The position numbers and the translations under genes were made by a program. A DNA stretch of 13,524 nucleotides from a virus (lineage: Duplodnaviria; Heunggongvirae; Uroviricota; Caudoviricetes), in the IMG/VR virus record IMGVR_UViG_2534681938_000018, positions 1-13,524 of that record, one strand, 5' to 3'. A model generated the notes under the pieces. The model was not told the origin of the DNA. It did no database searches and was given only the letters and a program-made list of their open reading frames with translations. Below are positions 4,347-5,138 of the stretch, one piece after another (position 1 is the first letter of the stretch; each line of letters starts with the position of its first letter).

Positions 4347-5138
4347 ATGAATAAACAATACGAACTGGTTGTTAAAGGGATAAATATTTACCCGGATAAG
4401 ATTACTGTTACTGTGGCGCTGGAAACTGGTGGGTATACGTCACTGTTGTTGCCAAATGTGGTGATTGATCTTGATCGTGTTGAAGGTGCCCCGCTGGAGT
4501 TTTACGAAGCTGAGGCGAAAAAGAAGGCGAAGCAGTTTTTCATGGATATTGCTGCCGGGTTATGTGAAGGGAACGAACCGTTGCCGGAAAAGCGCCTCTG
4601 TTCAGAAGAGCGGTATACCATACAAATTAACAATGCATATAACACGATACAGTCAGAAAAAGATGATATCGAATCACGCATTGAAAAACTGGAGAACAGC
4701 GTCGTTGAACTGAATAAAAAACTGTCGGTGCAGATCCCTTCCGAAGGTGAAAAAAAACGCCGTGATGAGCAGTTCGCGGCGTTTTACGATTATTGCCGGA
4801 AAGTGATGAGCAGAAATCTCGCAGAGTGTTTCCGTATTCAAAAAAACAGAGAGCGCTCTGCAAATAGTGAGATTCTGGATAATTTTTTAAAGGGGACGCA
4901 TCTCGCCAGTGATTGTTTCATTGCTCATTCTTTTGGTGGCTTTCATGAGGCCATCAAACATGATGTTGAGAGAAGTCCAGGTATCCTCTGTTCCATTCCC
5001 GTAAGCATCGAAATAGACACAAATACGATAACCGGTGAACTCGTTACCGCCGGAGTCGGTATATTCCGTCATGAGGGGAACGATGCCAAAGGTTCCTTTA
5101 CAAAAATCGGGCCGTTCTTTCTGAAGGTAGAGCGATAG
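4347..5138 (+). CDS. Hypothetical protein with coiled-coil segment, coupled to the holin; no recognisable homology. The last 84 codons (4887-5138) are antisense to the next gene, so the 3' end is uncertain.
   Basis: ATG 4347 lies 3 nt after the holin stop with SD GGAGAG; AT-rich codon usage unlike flanking phage genes; ...ESRIEKLENSVVELNKKLS... is coiled-coil-like. Alternative frames would end the gene at 4890 or 4912. Confidence 0.45.
   Translation: MNKQYELVVKGINIYPDKITVTVALETGGYTSLLLPNVVIDLDRVEGAPLEFYEAEAKKKAKQFFMDIAAGLCEGNEPLPEKRLCSEERYTIQINNAYNTIQSEKDDIESRIEKLENSVVELNKKLSVQIPSEGEKKRRDEQFAAFYDYCRKVMSRNLAECFRIQKNRERSANSEILDNFLKGTHLASDCFIAHSFGGFHEAIKHDVERSPGILCSIPVSIEIDTNTITGELVTAGVGIFRHEGNDAKGSFTKIGPFFLKVER

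Follow-up and report, generated by a model that had tools for sequence, protein, structure and literature searches.

Two convergent open reading frames (ORFs) that share 252 base pairs (bp) raise the question of whether both of their 3′ ends are real. They were found in a stretch of DNA of 13,524 nucleotides (nt) from a virus of the Caudoviricetes (IMG/VR record IMGVR_UViG_2534681938_000018, positions 1 to 13,524), which as a whole is called the window here and which is the late region of a lambdoid, Shiga toxin (Stx)-type prophage of Escherichia coli with the gene order sialate O-acetylesterase, holin S, plus ORF, minus ORF, lysozyme R, Rz and terminase genes. As stated by the original prediction, which was made from the letters of the window, and as confirmed by ORF listing and translation, a plus-strand ORF of 263 amino acids (aa; 4347–5138, TAG at 5136–5138) runs against a minus-strand ORF of 210 aa (5519–4887, TAA complementary to 4887–4889), which is named gene A in the following. 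Because 4347 and 4887 are both divisible by 3, the 252 common bases form 84 codon-aligned antisense codons, position 1 of one facing position 3 of the other, as had also been described; the part of the plus ORF within the overlap (4887–5138, plus strand, 83 codons and the stop, codon-aligned antisense to A codons 128–211) is the core of what is called gene or domain B. Codon-aligned antisense is the frame in which shadow ORFs persist most easily, and the original prediction preferred to regard one of the two 3′ ends as not real, a true long antisense overlap being rated as less likely. The evidence presented here favours the true overlap: from sequence comparison, and with a probability that we put at about 0.78, it appears to be a genuine conserved antisense gene pair, which temperate phages carry within their late operons as a small cargo cassette.

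Conservation of the overlapping frames

Homologous loci (L numbers) were aligned, as had been proposed as a check, and the codon-aligned antisense frame was found open in divergent A loci, first in L010 and L011 and later in further loci that include L060, L061, L053 and L055. Altogether the frame is open over the last 82–86 codons of A in 11 lineages, nine of them enterobacterial and two of a Pseudomonas type. The stop of B lies at the invariant Leu128 of A in 9/9 enterobacterial lineages that keep B, and the codon used there is always CTA or TTA, the only two leucine codons whose reverse complement is a stop codon; in the two Pseudomonas-type lineages the B frame is 4–6 codons longer and extends to A codons 119 and 121. 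B starts at an ATG (GTG in L053) with a Shine-Dalgarno sequence 2–19 codons past the stop of A, or is part of a longer upstream ORF, and in the stand-alone B lineages examined these start signals are kept despite unrelated flanks. At the amino-acid level, conservation of the motifs IGPFYLK and VVRYEG reaches as far as the Pseudomonas-type relatives.

Tests of codon choice were performed with seven lineages (the window, L010, L011, L034, L046, L047 and L048) in which synonymous divergence (pS) outside the overlap was at least 0.73, so that their codon choices are effectively independent. A codons 1–127 were taken as outside and A codons 129–210 as overlap, and TTA, CTA and TCA were counted as anti-stop codons. 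In the seven lineages, TTA and CTA made up 39% of the leucine codons outside and 0% in the overlap, TCA made up 43% of the serine codons outside and 0% in the overlap, and both residues together gave 54/132 anti-stop codons outside and 0/93 in the overlap; in all 11 lineages the counts were 80/219 (37%) and 0/141 (Fisher p = 5.6e-21). The fraction of codons ending in A was 0.34 outside and 0.22 in the overlap for the other amino acids, and a general shift in third-position composition was rejected as the source of the depletion because these other A-ending codons stay at 22%. Calculated with the codon usage of the part of A outside the overlap, the probability that the antisense frame is open over 82 codons is 0.03 for the window alone and ~3e-22 over the seven lineages. 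Base composition by codon position had been said to be unable to tell which 3′ end is real; codon choice can tell, since antisense-stop codons are missing only inside the overlap.

In A, pS was 0.84 (saturated) for codons 1–127 and 0.57 for codons 129–210, and nonsynonymous divergence (pN) was 0.26 and 0.23, respectively; the two values for the overlap (pN 0.23, pS 0.57) point to purifying selection on A itself within the shared segment. Recent common ancestry as a cause of the lower pS in the overlap was rejected, since pN shows no matching drop and recency would not account for the missing anti-stop codons. Among sites with the same residue, the fraction of identical codons was 0.415 outside and 0.603 in the overlap (Mann-Whitney p = 7e-6), the rise starting at A codons 121–130, where B ends. 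Amino-acid identity of the antisense frame was 0.49 in the overlap against a null expectation of 0.314 ± 0.013, and 0.326 against 0.323 in the control region of codons 1–127; for the B frame of the window compared with six other lineages it was 0.448 against 0.269 ± 0.027. As the window, L001 and L002 do not differ at all over positions 4786–5655, a partial relative with 89% identity and few differences was used for a comparison at short range, in which the differences fell 8/3/8 on A codon positions 1/2/3, a pattern without the third-position excess expected of single coding, in a sample too small to test.

A natural loss-of-B control is provided by a Salmonella prophage remnant near sodC (L007, 5001–5633), in which A is intact and B is broken by antisense stops at A codons 161, 191 and 194, with CTG at Leu128. 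Excess codon identity is absent there (0.41 versus 0.43), pS in the overlap comes close to saturation (0.73), and the rise in guanine-cytosine content that all B-bearing lineages show in the overlap is missing: the selection signals vanish with B. The reverse state is seen in L049 (4001–4408) and L050, where B (104 aa) is intact and A is reduced to residues 97–210. A remote relative of A (L057, 33% identity) has no B, and B therefore probably arose by overprinting in one subclade of A.

Across these lineages, the alignments demonstrate that both frames are open and, as judged from the substitution patterns, under purifying selection, with the start and the stop of B conserved; the view that one of the two 3′ ends is not real is contradicted by this. 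The openness of the B frame goes beyond what sense codon usage gives and is accompanied by conservation of its own, which is not the behaviour of a shadow ORF. An overlap longer than ~90 nt, selection on A, extra selection on the B frame and start signals, as looked for in antisense overlapping pairs, were all found.

Gene A and its product

On the evidence of its homologues and of a predicted structure, gene A, including its overlapped 3′ end, is a real gene for a folded protein of an uncharacterised family. Full-length homologues of 205–244 aa with 26–65% identity were obtained from Salmonella, Klebsiella, Enterobacter, Yersinia, Photorhabdus, Xenorhabdus, Moellerella, Pseudomonas and metagenomes, and many residues of the overlapped C-terminus are invariant in their alignment. 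The AlphaFold2 model of A has a predicted local distance difference test score (pLDDT) of 86.5 and a predicted template modelling score (pTM) of 0.86; residues 129–210 are modelled as strands 142–154 and 160–174 and a helix 177–204, mostly with pLDDT >90. No relative of A was found in Pfam, PHROG, NCBIfam, PADLOC or the Protein Data Bank (PDB), a fold search gave no informative match, no model of a described anti-phage defence or toxin-antitoxin system matched, and a scan of genome-collection contigs for A gave no confirmed locus. In the ORF listing the minus ORF begins farther upstream, at GTG 5588; ATG 5519 is taken as the conserved start of A because homologues have 210 aa and a Shine-Dalgarno sequence AGGAG (5527–5531, minus strand, read from the sequence) lies 7 nt before it.

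The plus ORF as a probable YdfR/coiled-coil/B fusion gene

The reading frame 4347–5138 is probably a genuine gene with B as its C-terminal domain, as its domain matches and relatives suggest. It begins 4 nt past the stop of holin S (4128–4343, plus strand; class II holin of the lambdoid late lysis cassette, according to ORF translation and to the annotation of the identical locus in E. coli E2865 by the Prokaryotic Genome Annotation Pipeline, PGAP), and a Shine-Dalgarno sequence GGAGAG lies 8–13 nt upstream of ATG 4347. Its first 96 aa (4347–4634, plus strand) match the DUF1327/YdfR domain (PF07041, E = 7.5e-34, profile positions 1–90 of 93, 116.3 bits against a gathering cut-off of 25), and the coiled-coil C-terminal part of the YdfR-family module follows (4635–4850, plus strand); phrog_2091 matches aa 1–168 end to end (E = 2.4e-85, profile positions 1–182/183). 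The homologue in PhiR12_1 ends after 169 aa, and in phrog_1085 this N-terminal module is followed by a C-terminal domain of another kind.

Since homology to the YdfR family stops at 4843 (compared with L006) and homology to stand-alone B starts at 4848 (compared with L052), a recombination joint is placed at 4844–4847, the end of a run of seven A (A7), and is followed by the B leader (joint and leader 4844–4886, plus strand); in relatives (alignment of P0013 and L060) this leader follows B's own ATG (..NSEALDKF). Stand-alone B proteins of 89–105 aa are present in protein databases, for example from Enterobacter and Yersinia, and among them are 104-aa forms that begin 4 nt after a holin gene and are 76–86% identical to the B of the window. 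An exhaustive hidden Markov model search found B only as a stand-alone protein or a C-terminal domain, apart from two spurious matches in long proteins.

A comparable fusion is encoded by a 251-aa ORF in a prophage of S. diarizonae (L060): its N-terminal domain is distantly YdfR-like (BLASTP E = 1e-4, with corresponding positions aligned), a coiled coil comes next, and B forms the end; the proteins P0039 (231 aa) and P0040 (296 aa) seem by eye to have the same build and have no Pfam DUF1327 match. The allele of the Stx2a phage Stx2_499 (L002, 1768–2253) has a short and different N-terminus in place of the DUF1327 domain; the difference, 306 nt long, keeps the frame, and a coiled-coil/B protein of 161 aa with the same stop is left. 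Beside the 251-aa ORF of L060 lies a gene for 86 aa (2569–2829, minus strand) that is distantly related to YdfR (phrog_30780, with a weak phrog_2735 match).

Sequence accuracy and annotation

A single-base error at one of two homopolymers in the plus gene had been suggested to have switched its frame. The A7 run was found at 4840–4846 as given, and the +1 frame after it ends at TAA 4888–4890 as claimed; the run of eight A (A8), given as 4749–4756, is at 4750–4757, and the other alternative frame, said to stop at 4910–4912, meets its first stop after A7 at TAG 4865–4867. A frame shift at the A8 run would terminate much earlier, at 4763 or 4804. Positions 4023–6183 are 100% identical to E. coli E2865, identity to Stx1a/Stx2a phage records of the LC5678xx series was also seen, with positions 4134–5655 identical to the Stx1a record LC567819, and positions 4740–4900, which contain both homopolymers and the minus-strand stop, are ≥99% identical in 112 complete E. 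coli genomes, all of which contradicts the suggested error. At least 1000 contigs carry the exact 210-aa A protein and at least 999 the exact 263-aa plus-ORF protein, and many of the contigs with both proteins are Stx phages. In Stx2_499, two substitutions break up the A8 run, and the gene nevertheless has the same frame and the same stop. Variation of homopolymer length among independent assemblies, by which an assembly frameshift would be recognized, was not seen.

Compared with the E2865 prophage, to which it is otherwise 99.7% identical, the window has single-base insertions or deletions (indels) within genes, none of them in the A/B locus: +T at 2167, −C near 3575, which splits the sialate O-acetylesterase gene into ORFs 2141–3643 and 3634–3978, +G at 6916, which lengthens the Rz ORF 6482–7105 to 207 aa, and −A near 9630 in an A-run of the terminase/portal region. 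They could be due to prophage decay or to assembly errors.

Annotation of the locus varies between records. The plus ORF is annotated as a 792-bp coding sequence in LC567819; in RefSeq, PGAP calls a 249-bp pseudogene ('DUF1327, missing C-terminus') in E2865 and 2014C-4587, the two complete-genome records inspected for their annotation; most of the records listed have no annotation across the A and B match (4596–5649, ~1 kb), and one record has a 288-bp plus-strand 'hypothetical protein' within the 5′ half of A. A literature search found no paper on the A/B locus and one on the YdfR of K-12. No Rfam family was found at the overlap; elsewhere in the window, two small RNA families of Rfam lie just upstream of the esterase gene, STnc100 (1726–1915, plus strand, 135.8 bits) and the anti-GcvB small RNA AgvB (1916–1977, minus strand, 96.5 bits).

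Cassette sites and putative expression signals

In 8/8 phage contexts read, B points the same way as the late genes and A the opposite way. The cassette lies between S and R in the window, L051 and L052, between Q and holin or just upstream of holins in L060 and L049, after the tail assembly gene I in L010, L011, L035 and L046, and after the tape-measure gene in L048. A Pseudomonas-type A/B pair (L055, 519–959, minus strand; also L056) adjoins, divergently, a gene with a SocA_Panacea (antitoxin-type) domain, which hints at a defence or toxin-antitoxin neighbourhood.

A weak terminator-like hairpin (GCAGAG-CGCU-CUCUGU followed by U7; 4840–4861, minus strand), which is no more than a match to the consensus, was located 26 nt downstream of the stop of A, its U-tract being the A7 run on the other strand; the folded 61-nt stretch around it has −8.2 kcal/mol as a whole. 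In the presumed leader of A a second hairpin (CCAGUG-N5-CACUGG; 5575–5591, minus strand) is present that is also found in the Salmonella loci L060 and L007, and the folded stretch with this hairpin has −16.3 kcal/mol. Alignment with L010, L011, L034, L041 and L043 revealed a conserved element upstream of A (TATCAGGAT..N..GG.TATGTT; 5605–5643, minus strand), which abuts the start codon of lysozyme R (5650–6183, plus strand), is shared with the cassettes at tail loci and carries a −10-like TATGTT; from its sequence it is a candidate promoter of A.

The interval between S and R is a hot spot for cargo (L003, 1787–2504; L005, 1501–2631; L006, 1501–2391). In other phages it holds YdfR-family ORFs of 268–296 aa with a different C-terminal domain, and other minus-strand genes are also found there, namely a 'DUF1823' gene in PhiR12_1, whose overlap with the YdfR-family ORF measures 53 nt, and, in UPEC957C, the gene of WP_000551290. 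As the match to the window starts again at 5573/5574, these other S-R cargos share the element upstream of R.

The following course of events is proposed. In most lineages B is a stand-alone protein with its own start and ribosome-binding site, encoded antisense to the last 82 codons of A. In the window the start of B would have been lost when recombination at 4844–4847 joined a complete YdfR(DUF1327)/coiled-coil module (aa 1–168) to B, which would now be translated as the C-terminal domain of the ORF after holin S. A would be a moron-like unit whose transcription, probably in the lysogen, is driven by the element upstream of it and directed against the late operon, and B would be made from the late transcript; as A is opposed to late transcription and B would be its product, late transcription would both yield B and run antisense through A, and the two products would alternate. 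B may then counteract or replace the activity of A during lytic growth, which is speculation.

Weighing of alternative explanations

Several observations weigh against a genuine antisense gene pair. The B of the window is without a start codon (ATG, GTG or TTG) of its own, and the fused allele is almost clonal, being identical over 4786–5655 in the records compared, so that selection on the fused form itself is unsupported. The AlphaFold2 model of B is poor (pLDDT 55, pTM 0.43; nine sequences), too poor for a fold search; profile searches gave B neither a homologue outside the overlap nor a family assignment, and a profile search of the PDB with B returned nothing. Replacements in B at sites synonymous in A exceeded the expected conservativeness by 0.38 BLOSUM units, a difference that is suggestive but not significant (95% confidence interval −0.05 to 0.87). 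Single-gene states (A only in L007, B only in L049 and L050) indicate that A and B are not strictly interdependent. The terminator hairpin of A is weak, a consensus sigma-70 scan of 4000–6300 gave no site for A and a looser scan gave only 7/12 matches, and that the products of A and B are expressed in alternation is something we can only infer.

It is unlikely, in our judgement, that B is real elsewhere and is read through by accident here alone, after a recombination that joined the YdfR-family gene, deprived of its stop, to a B deprived of its start, in which case the 95-codon tail would be functionless and the functional 3′ end of the plus gene would lie near 4850. The missing start codon, a joint placed exactly where the phrog_2091 profile ends, near-clonality of the allele that would have left no time for decay, the 1/3 chance that a joint is in frame and the PGAP call of a truncated DUF1327 pseudogene would all agree with such an accident; however, the order of YdfR-like domain, coiled coil and B recurs in the divergent L060, with P0039 and P0040 similar by eye, the arrangement of Stx2_499 (161 aa, no DUF1327 domain) keeps the frame into B, the allele is common (~1000 contigs) and the B frame of the window is far nearer to other B proteins than expected by chance. 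A constraint at the RNA level, by an antisense RNA or structure that regulates A or by the transit of ribosomes on the late transcript, would make the peptide irrelevant and would be in line with the low-confidence model of B, the non-significant conservativeness test and the constant location of B on the late-transcript strand. We regard it as very improbable, because the depletion is specific to the three antisense-stop codons with no general effect on A-ending codons, the stop of B is fixed at one leucine codon in the nine enterobacterial lineages that keep it, each stand-alone B lineage has a start codon and a Shine-Dalgarno sequence despite unrelated flanks, IGPFYLK and VVRYEG are kept as amino acids as far as the Pseudomonas-type relatives, and the locus has no Rfam family.

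That the overlap is a pure shadow ORF produced by the codon bias of A, or an artefact of a single-base error at A8 or A7, is hardly credible. The codon-aligned antisense frame is generally known to favour shadow ORFs and single-base indels do occur in genes elsewhere in the window relative to E2865, but the identity to E2865 over 4023–6183 (100%) and to LC567819 over 4134–5655, the 112 complete genomes with ≥99% identity across 4740–4900 and the frame kept by Stx2_499 with its broken A8 run argue against an error, and 37% of leucine and serine codons are anti-stop codons outside the overlap against 0% inside it, in the same genes with the same codon bias.

If the overlap is taken as the genuine gene pair, an extension of it can be formulated that we consider rather doubtful: A and B might form a two-state module in which A is a moron expressed in the lysogen, for example an exclusion or abortive-infection factor, and B is its antagonist, for which the late transcript is the only source. 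In the lytic cycle, convergent transcription from the late promoter would then shut A off and at the same time provide the protein that antagonizes it, and B in its YdfR-fused forms might be tethered to RNase E or RNA. If true, this would be a new regulatory and defence architecture, with an antidote encoded antisense inside the gene that it counteracts.

Relation to known systems and significance

Shadow ORFs stand in the same codon-aligned antisense relation and have the same first appearance as A and B; B differs from them in that its openness goes beyond the codon usage of A, its start, stop and sequence are conserved, and the signal is lost where B is broken. Antisense overlapping genes have been described in E. 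coli O157:H7 (enterohaemorrhagic E. coli, EHEC) and Pseudomonas aeruginosa, namely ano/ECs2385, laoB and nog1 (PMC5960689, PMC5810103, PMC9927249, PMC8850804), and they were reportedly found by RNA sequencing and ribosome profiling, whereas the evidence for A/B is comparative. In both cases a second coding ORF lies antisense within an established gene and is ignored by annotation pipelines, and in both an origin by overprinting is likely, B being limited to one subclade of the A family. Antisense genes of the EHEC and P. aeruginosa type are usually young and narrowly distributed; A/B differs from them in that it is found in 11 lineages from Enterobacterales to the Pseudomonas type, is carried by a mobile phage cassette, and has its B also as a domain of fusion proteins.

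The lambda genes bor and lom are lambdoid morons opposite to the late operons, and lambda OOP RNA is a case of convergent antisense control of the 3′ end of cII. Like lambdoid morons, A lies in a late operon in opposite orientation with its own ribosome-binding site, a terminator-like hairpin and a conserved upstream element, and late transcription must run antisense through it. To our knowledge, the antisense strand of known morons is not itself protein-coding; here, unlike there, the late-strand RNA over the 3′ end of A appears to encode a conserved protein. In the lambdoid lysis cassette, Rz1 lies in the +1 frame of Rz on the same strand; A/B resembles Rz/Rz1 in that two proteins come from the same DNA of the lambdoid lysis region, and differs in that they are encoded on opposite strands. 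The YdfR of the Qin prophage, a protein of 103 aa encoded between holin and lysozyme, is matched by the plus ORF in its N-terminal 96 aa, a clear DUF1327 domain, and in its location between S and R. Residues 1–72 of K-12 YdfR bind the catalytic half of RNase E, and YdfR co-purifies with RNA (PMC13232886), which by analogy hints at an RNA-related role of the YdfR fusion. Unlike the single-domain K-12 protein of ~100 aa, the protein of the window has 263 aa and adds a coiled coil and the antisense-encoded B.

It is a matter of debate, for the EHEC and P. aeruginosa genes as well, whether functional proteins are ever encoded by the long antisense ORFs of bacteria and phages (PMC7457138; bioRxiv 10.1101/724807), and well-supported cases are few. 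We rate A/B as belonging to a known but rare kind, unusual in its broad conservation, its mobility and the reuse of an overprinted protein as a fusion domain. Its comparative evidence is unusually clean, with saturated flanking sites, a sharp rise in constraint near the end of B and a natural loss-of-B control. The locus also marks a blind spot of annotation, as complete E. coli genomes in RefSeq are empty or carry a pseudogene at 4596–5649 despite ~1000 contigs with the allele. A mobile cassette with B always on the strand of the late genes points to a testable link with lysogenic and lytic expression, and the pair is a candidate for a gene born de novo through overprinting whose protein would later have become a domain that can be fused to others.

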